From Ignavibacteriota bacterium (lineage in GTDB: Bacteria > Bacteroidota > Ignavibacteria > Palsa-1295): a stretch of 64,000 nucleotides of DNA. The DNA lies in NCBI GenBank assembly GCA_963794025.1, contig CAWCCK010000022.1:120937-184936 (forward strand). Direction: 5' to 3'. Position 1 is the first letter of the stretch. Each line of letters opens with the position of its first letter. The notes beneath the pieces are model-generated. The model saw nothing but the letters and a program-made list of their open reading frames with translations, had not been told where the DNA came from and did not search any database. A program made the position numbers and the translations under genes. Shown here one piece after another: positions 25,440-63,103 of the stretch.

Positions 25440-28400
25440 TTGAACCCCAAAACACATTCCAACGAACTCCGCCTGTTCGTCTCCTCGACGTTCCGCGACC
25501 TCATGCCCGAACGCGAGCAGTTGGTGAAAAAAATCTTCCCGCGTATCCGCAAAGAGTGCCGCGAACGTGGCATCGAATTCACCGAAATTGACCTGCGCTG
25601 GGGAATAACCGAGGAAGAATCGCGCACCGGCAAAACCATTCGTATCTGCCTGGAAGAGATCGACCGCTGCCGACCGTATTTCATCGGAATTATCGGCTCG
25701 CGCTACGGATGGGTTCCCGGCATCACCGAGATCGAAAAAGACGAAGAAATGCTGAAAGAATTCCCGTGGCTCCGCGACTATGCCGCCAGCGATAAAAGCA
25801 TTATCGAAATGGAATTCGCGCATGGCGCGATCCTACGGAAAAACGACAGCGCGTTCTTTTATGAACAGGGGAACAACGATTCACAGTACTCAAATGACAA
25901 AATGGACTCAAATGACAAGTCCTTTCAGTCCATTTCGTCCCTTGAGTCCCTTAAACATACCCTTCAATCCACCGGAGTTCCCTATCGCCGCTTCACCGAT
26001 CCCGAAGAATTAGGCGAGCAGGTATTTCAGGACATCCTCACCATTCTCGACCGCGATTTTCCGCAAAAGAAAGAGATGACGCCGCTCGATCACGAACGCG
26101 CCGAGCACGAAGCGTATTCGCGGAACCGGCGGCAATCGTATGTTGCAAATCCGGAGTATTACGAGGCATTTGCAAAATATGTGGAGTCCGATGGCCCGCC
26201 GCTTATTATTTGGGGAAGATCGGGTTTGGGCAAGAGCGCGCTCATGGCGTATCTGGCGCATGAATATCAAACGCGGAACCCGAATGCCTTCGTCGTCCAG
26301 CATTTTATCGGCGCAGCCGAAGGCAGCGATCCCGAAGACGTGATGCGTCAGGTGATGATGGAAATAAAAGAACGCTATCAGCTTGCGGACACGATCCCCA
26401 CCGACGAAAACGCGCTCCGGGAAGAATTCCCAGTCTGGCTGGCGAAAGTAGGAGGGGATGGTCAGGCTGAAAGCACTGACCTACGCGTAGGTCGGCGCTT
26501 CCAGCCCGACACCCTCATCCTTTTGATCGATGCGCTCAACCAGCTTACAGGCATTGCGCCGGAAATGCACTGGCTGCCGGATTTCATTCCCGCGAATGTG
26601 CGCCTCATCGTTTCAACAACAACCGAGAGCCTTCCCCTTGCACAATTACGCGAGCGGAAGTGGAATGAATTGGAACTTCAGCCGCTAACCGAACAGCAGC
26701 GCGAAGCTATCGCGCAGGGTTTCCTGAATCGCTTTCACAAATCGCTGCCGCTGAGCGATCTGCACACGCTTTCGGCAAATCCCAAATCGTCGAGTCCGCT
26801 GTTTTTGCGGACGGTGCTGGAAGAGCTTCGCATTTTCGGGCATCACACTACGCTGCACGAAGAGCTTGAGGATTATTTAGCGAGCGCGGATGAAAGAGAA
26901 CTATTCCAGAAAGTGCTCGCCCGCATGGAGCGCGATCATGGCGAAGACGCCGTTCGTAATGTCATGACCGCCATCTGGGCGTCGCGGCACGGGCTGTCGG
27001 AATCCGAACTGATGCAGATCACCGGCAAGCCGCGCATGGAACTATCGGAACTTATGATCGCGATGGAATACCACCTCATGACCCGCGAAGGGTTCCATAC
27101 CTTCTTCCATAATTATTTGCGCGAAGCGGTGGAGATGCGCTACATGCCGGATGAAGTAGCGCGTAAAGCTGCACACGCGAAAATCGGGGAATATTTCTCC
27201 ACAAGAGAATATGGCCATCGACGAAGAGACGAAGAACCCTGGCAATGGACCGAGGCGGGTGAAAAAGAGAGGCTGATCGGATCGCTTGCCGATCTCGCTA
27301 TGCTAAATCTCTTCATACAAAGTCAGAGGACGCACGAGTTAGTTACCCATTGGGTGCATGCCGATATGGATCGTGTTGCAGGGAGTTATGCCGATTCTTA
27401 TGGCAAGTTACCGGATAATGTTGGCAATGCGGAGCGTCAAGAGCAACTGCGGAACATCGGCAAGATATTGCTGGCCGCTTCAAGGCCAATGGACGCGCAG
27501 GGGTACTTAGAGCGATCGCTTGAATTTACGCGAAAGATTCATGGAATTAAAAGCTTTCAAGCAGCGGAGGCGTTAGAAGATCTGGCTGAATTGCAATACG
27601 AACTTGCCGATTTCAATGGCGCAAAAAACTCACTGCAAGAAGCTGTTTCCATTCACGAAGAAGCGAATAGTTCACCGCTGAAAGTAGCGGCGCGCTATAG
27701 TTCCCTCGCTTCCGTTGCGTACCAGCAGCAACAGTATGAAGAGGGATTGATGTTTTGTAATAGTGCGCTTGCGGTTTTGCCCGAAGGCGGATGGGATGAA
27801 GACACATTGCGCGCTGATATTTTCACCAATATGAGCGGTTTGTATTACAGGCAAAAGAAATTGAATGAGGCAATTTCTGCTGCGGAACAGGCTGTTGAAG
27901 CTCAAAGAAATTTGCATGGCGATTCCGACAATCATACGCTGATCGCCATGAACAATCTCGCATCCATTCTCTCAGCAGCCGGTAGATATGTGGAATCGGA
28001 ACAATTGTTTCTATCCCTCATAGTAACCTTGAAAATGAATTTGGGGAAAACCCACCTTAATGTTGCTAGTGCGCTGAAAGGATTTGCTCTTGCTTTAGAA
28101 CGTGCCAATCAAATACCAAGAGCGAAGGCAGCAATTAAAGAAGCGTTAGCAATATTTCTCAAACATCTTCCATCCGATCATCCAGAACTGCTTTCTGGAC
28201 AATTGGCTGTAGGTGCCTATGAATTTCTGGAAGGCAATTTCAGTGAAGCGGAGAAAATATATCGACAATATGAACCACTTCGCGCCACCATTCTCGGCTT
28301 CACTCATCCCACTGTGCTGCGCGGCCGTGAGCGTTATATTGAAATACTTCTCGCTCTCGGCAAAAATAGAAGAAGCCTCCATGCTCAAATTGGAACTGGA

Positions 28401-28535
28401 GGCTGCTTTATAAAGACGATCAGAATTCAGAATAGAATCAAAACTACAAAAATGCTATCATCTTGTACTGCTGTCCGAAATCATTATAACAATCGAGACC
28501 GAAGCCCCGCCATTGGCAGCGTTCATGCTGGCTGA
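25440..28535 (+). CDS. TIR-like (DUF4062/STIR-type) - STAND P-loop NTPase (NACHT/NB-ARC-like) - TPR-repeat protein. This is a bacterial NLR-like candidate antiphage defence protein.
   Basis: The N-terminus RLFVSSTFRDL...ICLEEIDRC matches the TIR beta-strand and the S.WC..E catalytic-Glu motif. Walker A is GRSGLGKSALMAY and Walker B is TLILLIDALNQ. The C-terminal ~400 aa carry TPR_10/12-like repeats. An in-frame insertion of a palindromic repeat lies at 26460-26510. Confidence 0.7.
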   Translation: MNPKTHSNELRLFVSSTFRDLMPEREQLVKKIFPRIRKECRERGIEFTEIDLRWGITEEESRTGKTIRICLEEIDRCRPYFIGIIGSRYGWVPGITEIEKDEEMLKEFPWLRDYAASDKSIIEMEFAHGAILRKNDSAFFYEQGNNDSQYSNDKMDSNDKSFQSISSLESLKHTLQSTGVPYRRFTDPEELGEQVFQDILTILDRDFPQKKEMTPLDHERAEHEAYSRNRRQSYVANPEYYEAFAKYVESDGPPLIIWGRSGLGKSALMAYLAHEYQTRNPNAFVVQHFIGAAEGSDPEDVMRQVMMEIKERYQLADTIPTDENALREEFPVWLAKVGGDGQAESTDLRVGRRFQPDTLILLIDALNQLTGIAPEMHWLPDFIPANVRLIVSTTTESLPLAQLRERKWNELELQPLTEQQREAIAQGFLNRFHKSLPLSDLHTLSANPKSSSPLFLRTVLEELRIFGHHTTLHEELEDYLASADERELFQKVLARMERDHGEDAVRNVMTAIWASRHGLSESELMQITGKPRMELSELMIAMEYHLMTREGFHTFFHNYLREAVEMRYMPDEVARKAAHAKIGEYFSTREYGHRRRDEEPWQWTEAGEKERLIGSLADLAMLNLFIQSQRTHELVTHWVHADMDRVAGSYADSYGKLPDNVGNAERQEQLRNIGKILLAASRPMDAQGYLERSLEFTRKIHGIKSFQAAEALEDLAELQYELADFNGAKNSLQEAVSIHEEANSSPLKVAARYSSLASVAYQQQQYEEGLMFCNSALAVLPEGGWDEDTLRADIFTNMSGLYYRQKKLNEAISAAEQAVEAQRNLHGDSDNHTLIAMNNLASILSAAGRYVESEQLFLSLIVTLKMNLGKTHLNVASALKGFALALERANQIPRAKAAIKEALAIFLKHLPSDHPELLSGQLAVGAYEFLEGNFSEAEKIYRQYEPLRATILGFTHPTVLRGRERYIEILLALGKNRRSLHAQIGTGGCFIKTIRIQNRIKTTKMLSSCTAVRNHYNNRDRSPAIGSVHAG
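26460..26510. repeat. Inverted dimer of the 27-bp element (GGTCAGGCTGAAAGCACTGACCTACGCG / TAGGTCGGCGCTTCCAGCCCGAC), inserted in-frame inside the NLR-like gene.
   Basis: The right arm is the exact reverse complement of 3676-3702. It encodes GQAESTDLRVGRRFQPD, the same frame as the STDLR peptide from copy 32705-32731. Confidence 0.7.
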
Positions 28536-28964
28536 TATTGTGAATTGAGTATTAGTTGAGTTAGCTACAATGGAGGGTGGGATATCCCAACTCGAGAGCG
28601 AGTTATTGTAGATCGAAGTGCCAACAGTTCCAGGCGAGCCGGGCTGCGCAACCAATACCCATGTTTCGGTAACAGACGGCGCCGATTGAGAAAATGATAG
28701 TTCCAGGGTTGTGCCAACAGCAAGACCGCCCCAGCCCATGTCATCCCCACTTAGATTTGCAAGTGGAGTAGGTGCCCATGCCACAACAGGCTGCAAATAA
28801 GAAGTAGCGTCGTTGTTCAACGGCCCCTTGAATGTAATGGCGATATCGAGCGCGCAATTGAATGTTACATTCAGACACTGCGCCGAATTTCTTGCCCAGG
28901 GCGTCGCTGGTGGCTGCGCTGGTGTCATCAGCGCCACGTTGAGTGTAGGATTAGGAACTCCCAT
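28458..28964 (-). CDS. Hypothetical Ser/Thr/Asn/Ala-rich protein on the opposite strand, between the NLR-like gene and the SLOG gene.
   Basis: 168-aa ORF whose end overlaps the last 78 nt of the 25440 ORF. It has no recognisable motifs. Confidence 0.3.
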   Translation of the reverse strand: MGVPNPTLNVALMTPAQPPATPWARNSAQCLNVTFNCALDIAITFKGPLNNDATSYLQPVVAWAPTPLANLSGDDMGWGGLAVGTTLELSFSQSAPSVTETWVLVAQPGSPGTVGTSIYNNSLSSWDIPPSIVANSTNTQFTISASMNAANGGASVSIVIMISDSSTR

Positions 28965-50019: not shown

Positions 50020-51675
50020 AACTTCCCATTATCTTCCTCATTGATGATGACCCGCAAGTGCTCCGGGCGCTTGCGAGGGATGTTCGGCAAAAATTTAAAA
50101 AGGAATATCAAATTCTGAGCACCGAAGATCCGCAGGAAGCGCTCGAAAGTTTGAAGGAACTAAAACGGACTGGTGAAGAAGTTGCGCTTTTTATTTCCGA
50201 TCAACGTATGCCGCGCATCACGGGCGTTGAACTGCTCGAACAATCGAAAACATTCTATCCCGAAGCGAAGCGGATGCTGCTCACGGCGTATTCCGATATG
50301 GATACCGCCATCCGCGCGATCAACGAAACCGATCTCGATTACTATCTGCTCAAGCCGTGGGATCCGCCGGAAGAAAAACTGTTCCCGATCATTGACGATA
50401 TGATCGATGAATGGTCGTCGAGCTATAAACCGGAACTTGCTGGGATTCGACTTCTCGGATATCAATTTTCTCCGAAGTCTCACGCGATCAAGGAATTTTT
50501 AGCGGGACATCAAATTCCCTACCAATGGATCGATGTCGAAAGCAATCCGAAAGCTGCTGAGATCATGGCGCTCCATGCGATCGCACTTGTCTCGCTTCCG
50601 GCGCTCATCTTCGAAGACGGCACGCTTAGTATCGATATCGAGATCCACGCTGTTGCAGAAAAACTTGGACTTCGGCCCACCGCAAGTTCCAACATGTACG
50701 ATGTCATCATTATCGGCGCTGGCCCGGCGGGGCTTGCGGCGGCTGTGTATGCAGGCTCGGAGGGACTAAAGACCCTCCTCGTTGAAAAACATTCCCCAGG
50801 CGGTCAGGCCGGTACGAGTTCCCGCATCGAAAACTACCTCGGGTTCCCGAAAGGTGTGAGCGGTTCCGAGCTTACGCGGCGGGCCATCACACAGGCTACT
50901 CGGTTCGGGATCGAATTCCTTACGCCGCAAGAAGTGCTGGCGATCACTTCTGCCGATTCCTACAAGACCGTTCAGCTTGCCGATGGCACCGCGATCCATT
51001 CGCGCAGCATCATCATTACGACGGGCGTAGCCTACCGTCAGTTGGAAACAAAAGGTATTGTGGAACTCACCGGAGCTGGCGTCTATTATGGCGCGGCAAC
51101 CATCGAGGCATTGCAAACGCGCGGTAAGCAAGTATATGTTATCGGCGGTGGGAACTCGGCAGGGCAGGCTGCGCTGCATCTTGCAACGTTCGCTGAACGA
51201 GTACATATCGTAATTCGTAAAGAAAGATCTGTCGGCAACGATGTCCTCCTACCTTATCGATCAGATCGGAAAAACACCGAACGTGACCGTGCTGCCGGAG
51301 ACCGAAGTCATCGAAGCGATCGGCCAGGAGCATCTCGAACAATTAGTGCTGCGAATGTCATCTGGGAAGGAATGCACAGTTGCGGCGGATGGCCTATTTA
51401 TTTTGATCGGTGCGCGGCCTTATACCGATTGGGTCAAATCCGATATTTTGAAGGACGACCGTGGATTTATCATTACCGGTCGTGACCTTCTTGCTCGCGA
51501 TTCGTTCAAAGCCGCATGGCCGCTCAAGCGCGATCCCTATTTGCTCGAAACGTGCAGCCCGGGAATTTTTGCTGCGGGCGATGTTCGTTCCGGAGCGATG
51601 AATCGCGTAGCCAGCGCCGTCGGCGAAGGCGCGATGGCCGTTAGTTTCGTTCACCAATATCTGGCCGAAGTTTGA
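50016..51675 (+). CDS. Response-regulator receiver - Cys-less glutaredoxin-like domain - thioredoxin-reductase-like flavoprotein fusion, with an apparent frameshift at about 51225-51240.
   Basis: REC domain with phospho-accepting D in FISDQRMP. Middle domain SPKSHAIKEFLAGHQIPYQWIDV...LPALIFEDG has a Grx fold but no CxxC. TrxR motifs are YDVIIIGAGPAGLAAAVYA and VIGGGNSAGQAALHL. The C-terminal TrxR part (GDVRSGAMNRVASAVGEGAMAV) continues in ORF 51241-51675 after a frame break inside gtaattcgtaaagaaag. Confidence 0.65.
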
Positions 51676-61928: not shown

Positions 61929-63103
61929 GTGTGCGTCTGCATGATCTATCTCGATAACGCCGCCACCACCCCGCTTGCGCCAGAAGTGCTGGATGCGATG
62001 CGCCCATTTCTTACAGAGGAATTCGGCAATGCATCCAGCGTCCATCAGCTTGGCGCGCGCGCGCGAGTAGCGATAGAATCTGCACGCGATACCGTTGCCC
62101 GCGCCATCAATGCCGAACCGCGCGAGATCGTATTCACTTCCGGCGGCACCGAAGCCGATAACGCCGCCATCAAAGGCGCGATCTTTAAGCAATATGCCGC
62201 ACTTAAAGATTGGAGTAAAATAAAAATCGTTACCAGCAAAGCAGAACATCTCGCCGTGCTCGAACCCATAGAATGGTTCTGCGGAACTTGGCGCTTCAGT
62301 CACTTACGTCCCTGTAAGTCCTTTTGGTCATGCAAAAGTAGAACGCCAACCAAATAACCGGCGACACTACGCTTGTTTCTCTCATGATGGTGAATAACGA
62401 AACCGGCGCAATAAATCCCATCTCCGAAATTATAAAAATCGTAAAAGCGAATTCCAACGCGCTCGTTCACACGGACGCGGTGCAAGCATTAGGAAAAATT
62501 CCCATTGATGTAAAGGCATTGGGAATTGATCTCCTCTCGCTTTCCGCGCATAAAATTCATGGACCGAAAGGCATCGGCGCGCTCTATATCAAAAGCGGAA
62601 CGCCGTGGGAACCGCTCCTGCATGGCGGATCGCAGGAACGCAACCGCCGCGGCGGAACGGAATCCGTCGCGCTTGCTGTCGGATTCGCGGAAGCAATAAA
62701 GCGATTACCCTCTCCCCACTGGGGGAGAGGGCAGGGTGAGGGGGGTGTTGCTTCACTAAGAACTTATCTTCTAACGAAACTCGCCCAATTTCCTGAAATA
62801 GTTCTTAATTCCGCAACGGACGAAAGTTCCGTCGATTCCATCGTGAACTTCACTTTCACAAACGAAGTGCTTGCGCGCTTGGATGCCGACGCGCTCATCA
62901 TTCGCTTCGATCTTGAAGGAATTGCGGTATCGAACGGCTCGGCCTGCACCTCCGGCAGCCAGCAGCCATCGCATGTCCTGCTCGCAATCGGCAAATCGAA
63001 AGAGGTTGCGAGTAAATCCGTGCGCGTATCGTTTTCCCGCTATAATACGGTGGAGGATATCGACCGGTTGGTTGAGGTGGTCGGGAAAATTATTGGGAAT
63101 TGA
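61929..63103 (+). CDS. Cysteine desulfurase (IscS/NifS family) interrupted by two close +1 frame breaks (about 62283 and about 62345) and carrying an in-frame palindromic-repeat insertion.
   Basis: N-terminal part MIYLDNAATTPL...FTSGGTEADNAAIKG in frame A. The middle LGASVTYVPVSPFGHAKVE is in a second frame. The C-terminal part TGDTTLVSLMMVNNETG...SAHKIHGPKGIGALY...CTSGS is in a third frame. Confidence 0.7.
62708..62746. repeat. Palindromic element CCCTCTCCCCActGGGGGAGAGGGcagggtgagggggg embedded in-frame in the cysteine desulfurase CDS.
   Basis: Encodes PSPHWGRGQGEGG. It resembles widespread CCCTCTCCCC...GGGGAGAGGG-type intergenic repeats. Confidence 0.55.

Follow-up and report, generated by a model that had tools for sequence, protein, structure and literature searches.

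The BoxC and PIT repeats of Escherichia coli are said to have been described by Bachellier in the 1990s and by Hoyne and Maher in 2000. Holder et al. (2015, PMC4666352) treat them as one intrastrand triplex motif, TM_ECO, with the consensus CCCTCNCCC N3-6 GGGNGAGGG N3 GGGNGAGGG. TM_ECO reportedly folds in vitro as a class II purine-motif triplex and occurs in >260 genomes, with 23 copies in E. coli K-12 that are 'always located intergenically'; it was tied to local sequence instability in E. coli, and linked mobility genes were not found (PMC4666352). Kaplan et al. (2016, PMC5100583) interpret these E. coli sequences, GGGAGAGGG-TTA or -CCG-GGGTGAGGG, as HPG1/HPG2, a G-quadruplex-hairpin-duplex switch; its members are described as all intergenic and close to operon 3′ ends, again with no mobility gene linked to them. 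Here we describe a copy of this type of repeat that lies in frame inside a cysteine desulfurase gene of an Ignavibacteriota bacterium. The gene is near the end of a stretch of 64,000 nt from contig CAWCCK010000022.1 (assembly GCA_963794025.1), which we call the window; positions are counted from its start and all features of the element and its gene are on the + strand.

Two other systems are useful for comparison. Repetitive extragenic palindromic (REP) sequences with a RAYT transposase, which make up REPtrons and REPINs, were reportedly described by Nunvar in 2010 and by Bertels and Rainey in 2011. In-frame palindromes in unrelated housekeeping genes are known as Rickettsia palindromic elements (RPEs) and as intragenic MITEs (miniature transposable elements with inverted repeats), e.g. 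the Coxiella QMITE (reviewed in PMC10969869).

We think it likely that a BoxC/PIT/TM element colonised the linker of the desulfurase, overwrote native residues there and has been kept, or renewed by copying, as a tolerated passenger. The colonised linker would be the one between the pyridoxal phosphate (PLP) domain and the small C-terminal domain, the event would date to an ancestor of a Kapabacteria-like clade, and some 10-13 native residues would have been overwritten. We picture the element as a passenger, selfish or neutral, and not as something that serves the host. Its sequence would be kept or renewed from other genomic copies, by gene conversion or re-insertion, and not by selection on the protein.

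Architecture and family of the repeat

The element occupies 62708-62745 (38 nt). It is a perfect 10-bp C-rich/G-rich inverted repeat, followed by CA and then by GGGTGAGGGGGG. The C-rich (pyrimidine) arm, CCCTCTCCCC (62708-62717), is separated by loop 1, ACTG (62718-62721), from the G-rich (purine) arm, GGGGAGAGGG (62722-62731), which is its perfect complement. These arms were read directly and are also reported by a repeat finder (pair I3), at 10 nt each, 100% complementary and 4 nt apart. Loop 2 (CA, 62732-62733) leads to a third block, GGGTGAGGGG(GG) (62734-62745), which on direct reading is a mirror repeat of the purine arm. When this block is laid antiparallel to 62722-62731 (using 62734-62743), 10/10 triads are of the kinds allowed in a purine motif (G·G, A·A and T·A). 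Because of the three-block layout, a single strand can fold as a hairpin, an intrastrand triplex or a G-quadruplex. Predicted hairpin energies, for the 61-nt stretch, are -28 kcal/mol as RNA (z -2.5) and -14.6 kcal/mol as DNA.

Its letters identify 62708-62745 as a copy of the BoxC/PIT/TM-type repeat, with a C-rich arm, a complementary G-rich arm and a second G-rich mirror block in about 35 nt. Against the TM_ECO consensus its parts read CCCTCTCCC, CACTGG, GGGAGAGGG, CA and GGGTGAGGG; the three blocks all fit, and loop 2 has 2 nt, not 3. The two share three blocks in nearly the same letters (CCCTCNCCC..GGGNGAGGG..GGGNGAGGG), triads that are all class II-allowed, a GC-rich composition, a length of about 35 nt and a multi-phylum distribution. 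The local instability around the E. coli copies also resembles the hypervariability of the desulfurase site described below. They differ in loop 2 (CA here, 3 nt in TM_ECO) and in setting, in frame in a conserved gene rather than intergenic as in E. coli K-12. Intergenic location is, however, a property reported for E. coli and is outside the sequence definition; the window element, in frame within open reading frame (ORF) 62384-63103, does not share it. A triplex has been shown in vitro for TM_ECO, whereas the window element is known from its sequence, as one copy in 64 kb. The 2-nt loop 2 is a minority variant: among 154 copies collected from other genomes 17 have it, and 6 of those 17 read CA.

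There is also a likeness to HPG1/HPG2. The window element fits the HPG motif GGGAGAGGG-NN-GGGTGAGGG, in which a G-tract core is preceded by a complementary C-rich flank. Its purine arm and third block together hold four G-tracts (G5, G3, G3 and G6), forming the G-quadruplex motif GGGGG-AGA-GGG-CA-GGG-TGA-GGGGGG with CCCTCTCCCC ahead. As in the described switch, there are four G-tracts of at least 3, short loops and the complementary C-rich flank on the 5′ side. The differences are the loop, CA rather than TTA or CCG, the intergenic location of the E. coli members, and the third block of asymmetric relatives, which mirrors the purine arm although a quadruplex does not need this. Asymmetric variants (AGGAGGGGG then GGGGGTGG) also settle another matter. 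The third block might have been a direct second copy of the purine arm, forming an alternative hairpin; in these variants it mirrors the purine arm with no direct repeat, and we reject the direct-repeat reading for this reason.

The full pattern occurs once in the window, against 0.00 expected in 100 dinucleotide-preserving shuffles, and the GGGAGAGGG..GGGTGAGGG pair likewise occurs once against 0.00 expected. A triplex-motif finder returned 62708-62741 as its sole hit in the window. An Rfam scan of 62400-63100 gave nothing above the gathering threshold; the best scores were 20.5 bits for whalefall-1 (threshold 37) and 19 for Antizyme_FSE, the antizyme frameshift element (threshold 40), and we treat these sub-threshold matches as noise. 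The weak whalefall-1 match lies at 62708-62743 (E 0.01), and the whalefall-1 RNA motif might overlap the triplex repeat family.

The initial annotation had called the palindrome a widespread REP-like element that is normally seen between genes. It is widespread and mostly intergenic, but it is not a classical REP and fits BoxC/PIT/TM_ECO instead. A classical REP/RAYT assignment is not supported, as the element has no GTAG-type 5′ head (a RAYT/Y1 transposase was not searched for). There are likenesses. Both are short GC-rich palindromes, often in inverted pairs, and in other genomes the motif flanks a DUF559 gene much as REPs flank RAYT. The window element differs in lacking the GTAG-type head and in having a third, mirror block, and the associated gene encodes a Vsr-like PD-(D/E)XK endonuclease.

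With no conserved flanks, the repeat amounts to a unit of only about 35 nt, and a longer, MITE-like body is ruled out by the flanks of the 154 copies. The likeness to RPEs is one of behaviour only, namely an in-frame palindromic repeat in a protein-coding gene that is translated as a fold-compatible, added surface peptide. RPEs are about 100-150 bp long, have a conserved peptide and are found in Rickettsia only, whereas the window element, at about 35 nt, belongs to a multi-phylum family. It has no sequence similarity to RPEs, and it replaces native residues rather than only adding to them. It is not a member of that group because it is 38 nt long and has no conserved flanks.

Distribution in other genomes

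A pattern scan with one genome per species found at least 120 stretches in at least 10 phyla; Proteobacteria, Planctomycetota, Chloroflexota, Cyanobacteria, Acidobacteria and Verrucomicrobia are among the phyla listed for the matches. In E. coli a 45-mer BLAST search has matches in 4894 of 5426 genomes. Related motifs also occur around the orthologues of the desulfurase, at 1-3 per 10-20 kb in 4 of 7 orthologous loci.

Open frames are depleted of these motifs. In the 120 loci taken from other phyla 38% of motifs lie inside open frames, compared with 79% of random positions, and for the class B motifs in metagenomes the figures are 36% and 64%; this test is crude in GC-rich DNA, so we use it as a trend only and have checked single cases with Pfam. 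Two apparent in-frame cases, L083 and L032, have no Pfam domains and were discounted. In-frame copies between Pfam domains in other phyla are found in Mfd (L011), in the LigA adenylation domain (L084), in MetG and in a Mo-hydroxylase/cytochrome c frame (L098). GlnE (L104) is a weaker case, with Pfam matches upstream of the element only. The genomes of the class A in-frame cases (L011, L084, L098 and L104) are Bordetella-like, Planctomycetota and others. The motif in L098 sits at the junction of two subunits, the Mo-hydroxylase and the cytochrome c, that are normally separate.

The host gene

The element lies in a gene for an IscS/NifS-like cysteine desulfurase, a class-V aminotransferase (61941-63103), identified by Pfam Aminotran_5 matches in both of its pieces, by IscS in the PDB and by synteny. 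ORF 62384-63103 covers the C-terminal two-thirds (Aminotran_5 E 8e-47; IscS/NifS structures E 4e-45) and ORF 61929-62357 the N-terminal part, also with an Aminotran_5 match. The nearest named relatives are from metagenome-assembled genomes of Candidatus Kapabacteria, Bacteroidota and Ignavibacteriota. Orthologues have an unbroken frame of 380-394 aa, in a conserved neighbourhood of an extracytoplasmic function (ECF) sigma factor, two small ORFs and the desulfurase. Both the SAHK motif with the PLP lysine and the SACTSG loop with the catalytic cysteine are preserved.

In the frame of ORF 62384-63103 the codons at 62705-62746 encode LPSPHWGRGQGEGG, that is L P S P H W G R G Q G E G G. Direct reading, together with the Aminotran_5 and IscS/NifS matches, thus confirms the annotated in-frame palindrome in a cysteine desulfurase gene. 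The proposed position between the PLP domain and the C-terminal domain also holds. In an alignment with Helicobacter pylori IscS the site comes just behind the GxGEA helix, with which the large domain ends, and a structure model agrees. This is an AlphaFold2 model of the orthologue P0003 (78 aligned sequences, mean predicted local distance difference test score (pLDDT) 88.8, predicted template modelling score 0.90), in which residues 256-270, the equivalents of the element-encoded ones, form a coil between helices 241-255 and 271-283. Modelling had been suggested as a way to see whether the segment is a surface loop, and to the extent of this coil between two helices it bears the idea out. The pLDDT is about 50 across the encoded residues, and below 50 at 263-268, while the rest of the model is confident. 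The element peptide is a Pro/Gly-rich, probably disordered loop. We take the element to be tolerated because it is translated without stops as such a loop.

In the window the gene is split by two +1 insertions that lie 60-65 nt apart, upstream of the element. The first is an extra C at 62279, seen in a DNA alignment with the orthologous loci L001 and L002 (GGTTCTGCGG vs GGTT-TGCG). The second is placed only approximately, at 62338-62345, by the L001 alignment and ORF frame arithmetic, its exact base being ambiguous where the local sequence is divergent. So 'in frame' applies to the conserved downstream part of the gene in the window, and to the entire gene in the orthologues. As the orthologues are intact and most genes of the window are unbroken, the two frameshifts are either a local sequence or assembly error or a recent inactivation that has left a pseudogene.

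Two single-base frameshifts so close together in one gene do raise the question of whether the element itself is an artefact, for example of a chimeric join or of faulty polishing where the sequence is G-rich. G-rich hairpins are difficult to sequence. However, the same element is found at the same codon in independent assemblies, made from other samples by other pipelines (L001 and L002 come from different ENA samples and L006 is an NCBI assembly), and the other genes of the window are mostly long uninterrupted ORFs. We regard an artefact as scarcely credible.

Replacement at a recurrent site

The initial annotation had stated that homologues have no segment at this position. This is not the case. 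Between the GFxEA and LRxYL motifs 120 homologues have 13-17 residues (modal 17, e.g. VRQMQLTKEESRKHIKD), compared with 20 in the window. The native segment in these homologues resembles a continuous helix and is unrelated to the element peptide. Since homologues have 13-17 residues where the window has 20, the element replaces native residues, with a net gain of 3 to 7, and a simple in-frame insertion is ruled out by these lengths.

We read the state of the site from the DNA at the same codon in nine orthologous loci (L001-L007, L262 and L263). Those of L001 and L002 carry the element as in the window. A decayed copy, CCCTCTCCC ACT GGGAAAGGG AA GGGGGG, is present in L006. L003 has another triplex motif, CCCTCCTT TTTA AAGGAGGG GGGC GGGGGGTGG, and L007 a degraded form of the L003-type motif. 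In L004 a decayed first hairpin is followed by a second one (CCTCCT..AGGAGG), while L263 has triplex motifs as a head-to-head inverted pair. L005 has native sequence without a palindrome, and L262 an unrelated, non-palindromic insert. The insert in L262 (P0031, L262:353-1576) is also seen in P0019; it has a lower GC content and encodes GPTGLKA..NGPKG at the same desulfurase site. As P0031 and P0019 carry such inserts, the loop accepts other kinds of extra sequence too.

On a neighbour-joining tree, made with the variable columns removed and without support values, these states are interleaved. We therefore read them as several events at one spot (insertion, replacement and loss) or as exchange between lineages.

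A comparison of orthologues can be misleading here. The three closest (P0002-P0004) keep PSPPWGRGQGE, and the initial annotation had argued that an equivalent, conserved segment in close orthologues would make it native protein sequence. That segment does exist, but orthologues that are just as close have another triplex motif, a pair of motifs or the native sequence at this codon, so the comparison does not decide the matter in the way proposed. Judged from the sequences, the segment shared with the closest orthologues is best read as a shared or re-acquired element and not as native protein sequence. The opposite view is that LPSPHWGRGQGEGG is a native, lineage-specific functional loop under selection as protein, and that the palindrome is incidental. 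Conservation of PSPPWGRGQGE in three orthologues is what one would expect from such a loop. The sister lineages, though, have unrelated sequences of other lengths at the same codon, the DNA fits a roughly 35-nt repeat motif of many phyla (loop sequences aside), and the modelled loop is of low confidence. Moreover, one would not expect codon choice to yield a perfect 10-bp inverted repeat with a mirror block (0.00 expected). A native functional loop is thus very improbable.

Conservation of the DNA

Between the window and L002 the gene is 80.6% identical outside the element and 34/36 (~94%) inside it. Both differences fall in loop 1, the sole part in which the two copies differ, and the arms and third block are identical. 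At third codon positions identity is 55%, compared with ~93% at first and second positions; because of this difference we take the element-bearing genes to be under purifying selection and presumably functional. The comparison with L006 gives 73% outside the element, 45% at third codon positions and 25/27 of the aligned positions inside. As the sister lineages swap the peptide for unrelated sequences, constraint at the level of the protein is unlikely to explain this. This leaves selection on a nucleic-acid structure, or repeated renewal of the copy from other ones.

The first of these deserves attention. The hairpin, triplex or G-quadruplex could be selected by the host in its coding region, with the peptide as a by-product; the roles that could be proposed are pausing of translation or transcription at the domain boundary, mRNA stability, or a programmed recombination or mutation hotspot. 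The site is placed exactly between two domains of the protein, the hairpin is highly stable (the RNA values given above), and the arms and third block have stayed identical between the window and L002 while third codon positions have dropped to 55%. Variants here and in the neighbouring Ppx-GppA gene all keep the three-block layout, with asymmetric third blocks that mirror the purine arm. On the other side, equally close lineages either have no element (P0010, P0013 and L005) or a decayed one (L006 and L004) in an intact gene. Motifs elsewhere are mostly outside open frames (38% vs 79% and 36% vs 64%, observed vs random). In earlier experiments (cited in PMC4666352) there was no promoter, terminator or polymerase-blocking effect in vivo. 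We consider host selection unlikely, although it is the strongest of the competitors.

We prefer colonisation of the linker by a passenger, but several points weigh against this reading. What we observe is a replacement and not a clean insertion, an outcome that no transposition mechanism known to us predicts. Base profiles of 15 nt on each side of 154 copies reveal no conserved flank or target-site duplication, with only 1-2 pyrimidines kept. Neither is there a second copy of the element in the 64-kb window by exact, 1-3-mismatch or generic pyrimidine/purine hairpin scans, nor a mobility gene near the element (the DUF559 profile was negative and RAYT/Y1 transposases were not searched for). 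Support values are lacking for the tree, and what look like independent events could be the product of recombination between lineages. Finally, the conservation of the arms well beyond synonymous-site divergence could equally mean that their structure is selected by the host.

Association with DUF559 endonucleases

In MetG of two betaproteobacteria (L025:1777-4515, an ORF on the - strand, and L009:2-2161) an inverted pair of motifs encloses a DUF559 domain, all in frame. The cassette has the anticodon-binding domain on one side and the C-terminal tRNA-binding domain on the other, and the 913-aa frame of L025 reads tRNA-synt_1g, Anticodon_3, DUF559, tRNA_bind. DUF559 (PF04480) is a Vsr-like PD-(D/E)XK endonuclease, and we searched for it with a profile built from four ORFs of this kind. 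All 7 of the DUF559 ORFs in the class A loci (852 kb) are within 157 bp of a motif: L009:1307-1794, L025:2111-2649, L056:5594-6026, L021, L066, L093 and L063. The class B metagenome loci (658 kb) also have 7, and 6 of these are within 12-132 bp of a motif (L208, L236, L239, L202, L151 and L182). Taken together, 13/14 DUF559 ORFs in these motif-selected loci are within 157 bp of a motif, and 7/14 are flanked on both sides. The flanking motifs vary in sequence by taxon and keep the three-block architecture.

These loci had been selected for motifs, so we also approached the association from the reverse direction, with ten DUF559 loci taken from a plasmid-database tblastn search regardless of repeats. 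They come from Alpha-, Beta- and Gammaproteobacteria, Cyanobacteria and Deinococcus. Triplex motifs are within 600 bp of DUF559 in 6/10 (L129-L132, L134 and L137), and 2 are flanked on both sides; as a control, 150 kb from three of the same replicons contain 0 triplex motifs. In E. coli K-12 the DUF559 gene ycjD (L128:5203-5761) has a BoxC about 165 bp downstream, with a partial duplicate of the ycjD 3′ end in between. The strict triplex finder missed this mismatched BoxC, which was read by eye, and because of this the figure of 6/10 is conservative. In the literature that could be searched we found no published link between DUF559 and triplex motifs.

A possible, though rather speculative, account is that a small mobile DUF559 cassette has BoxC/PIT/TM motifs as its cis-acting ends or as its targets, much as RAYT transposases have REPs, and that solo motifs and empty pairs, the desulfurase copy included, are non-autonomous copies or scars. 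The motifs of the inverted pair in L263 face inward, as do those around DUF559 in L009, L025, L056 and L202, and to judge by its sequence the pair looks like an empty cassette. Under this account a break made by the endonuclease would be repaired with other copies as the template. If true, such break repair would explain the variant motifs at one codon, the replacement of native residues, the near-identity of copies despite synonymous saturation and the instability around BoxC in E. coli. For the window copy we can only infer the link, because a profile search found no DUF559 in the window or in L001-L007.

Other palindromes at the locus

Just past the window's end, on the strand opposite to the desulfurase, the orthologous loci have a Ppx-GppA gene (L001:11346-12328, L002:11797-12735, L003:12618-13598, L004:4875-5831 and L005:11157-12149). 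It contains reverse-orientation triplex motifs, in frame, at two loops: before DIGGGS in five loci and before IAVAGT in four, with sequences that vary by locus. In-frame residence of such motifs is general in this lineage. In L001 and L005 a perfect palindrome, CAACGCATGATCGRTCATGCGTTG, is nested in the first motif. The more distant locus L262 has plain Ppx-GppA loops with no motif at either site. The peptide NHPPAPSYS..HRRG occurs in Ppx-GppA and, with minor substitutions, in the desulfurases P0008, P0009, P0011 and P0012; it is the reverse-strand translation of the class B motif. In L001:11346-12328 Ppx-GppA is called as two genes, with an apparent frameshift that adjoins the triplex motif (a record whose name ends in np1212, perhaps a nanopore assembly). 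G-rich triplex motifs may be error-prone or unstable sites.

The window also has palindromes of other kinds. At 26448-26520 there is a pair (26460-26512) of the GTAG-headed REP type, GGTCAGGCTGAAAGCACTGACCTAC / GTAGGTCGGCGCTTCCAGCCCGAC, in frame in a 1031-aa ORF (25440-28535), where it encodes approximately GDGQAESTDLRVGRRFQPD. This is probably what the initial annotation counted as a first such insertion. Short purine/pyrimidine hairpins, with one mismatch each, lie at 50759-50778 (GGAGGGAC TAAA GACCCTCC) and at 28745-28768 (CCCCACTT..AAGTGGAG); the triplex-motif finder returned neither of the two.

Implications

The type of element described here is known. What is new is its in-frame residence in conserved genes, a recurrent site with variants, conservation at the nucleotide level and the association with DUF559. 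Conserved housekeeping genes can accommodate the BoxC/PIT/TM motif in frame, and one permissive loop can be re-occupied by different variants of the motif. At such a site the motif is kept at the nucleotide level beyond what is expected for an unconstrained loop.

There are practical consequences as well. Annotators should be warned that, where an otherwise conserved enzyme contains a Pro/Gly-rich peptide of the PSPxxGRGxGEG type, the peptide comes from a repeat. The association with DUF559 provides a hypothesis that is testable in E. coli, that DUF559 endonucleases, ycjD included, act on triplex motifs. More generally, the element is a second and phylogenetically broad case of RPE-like behaviour, and a source of variation in protein loops.

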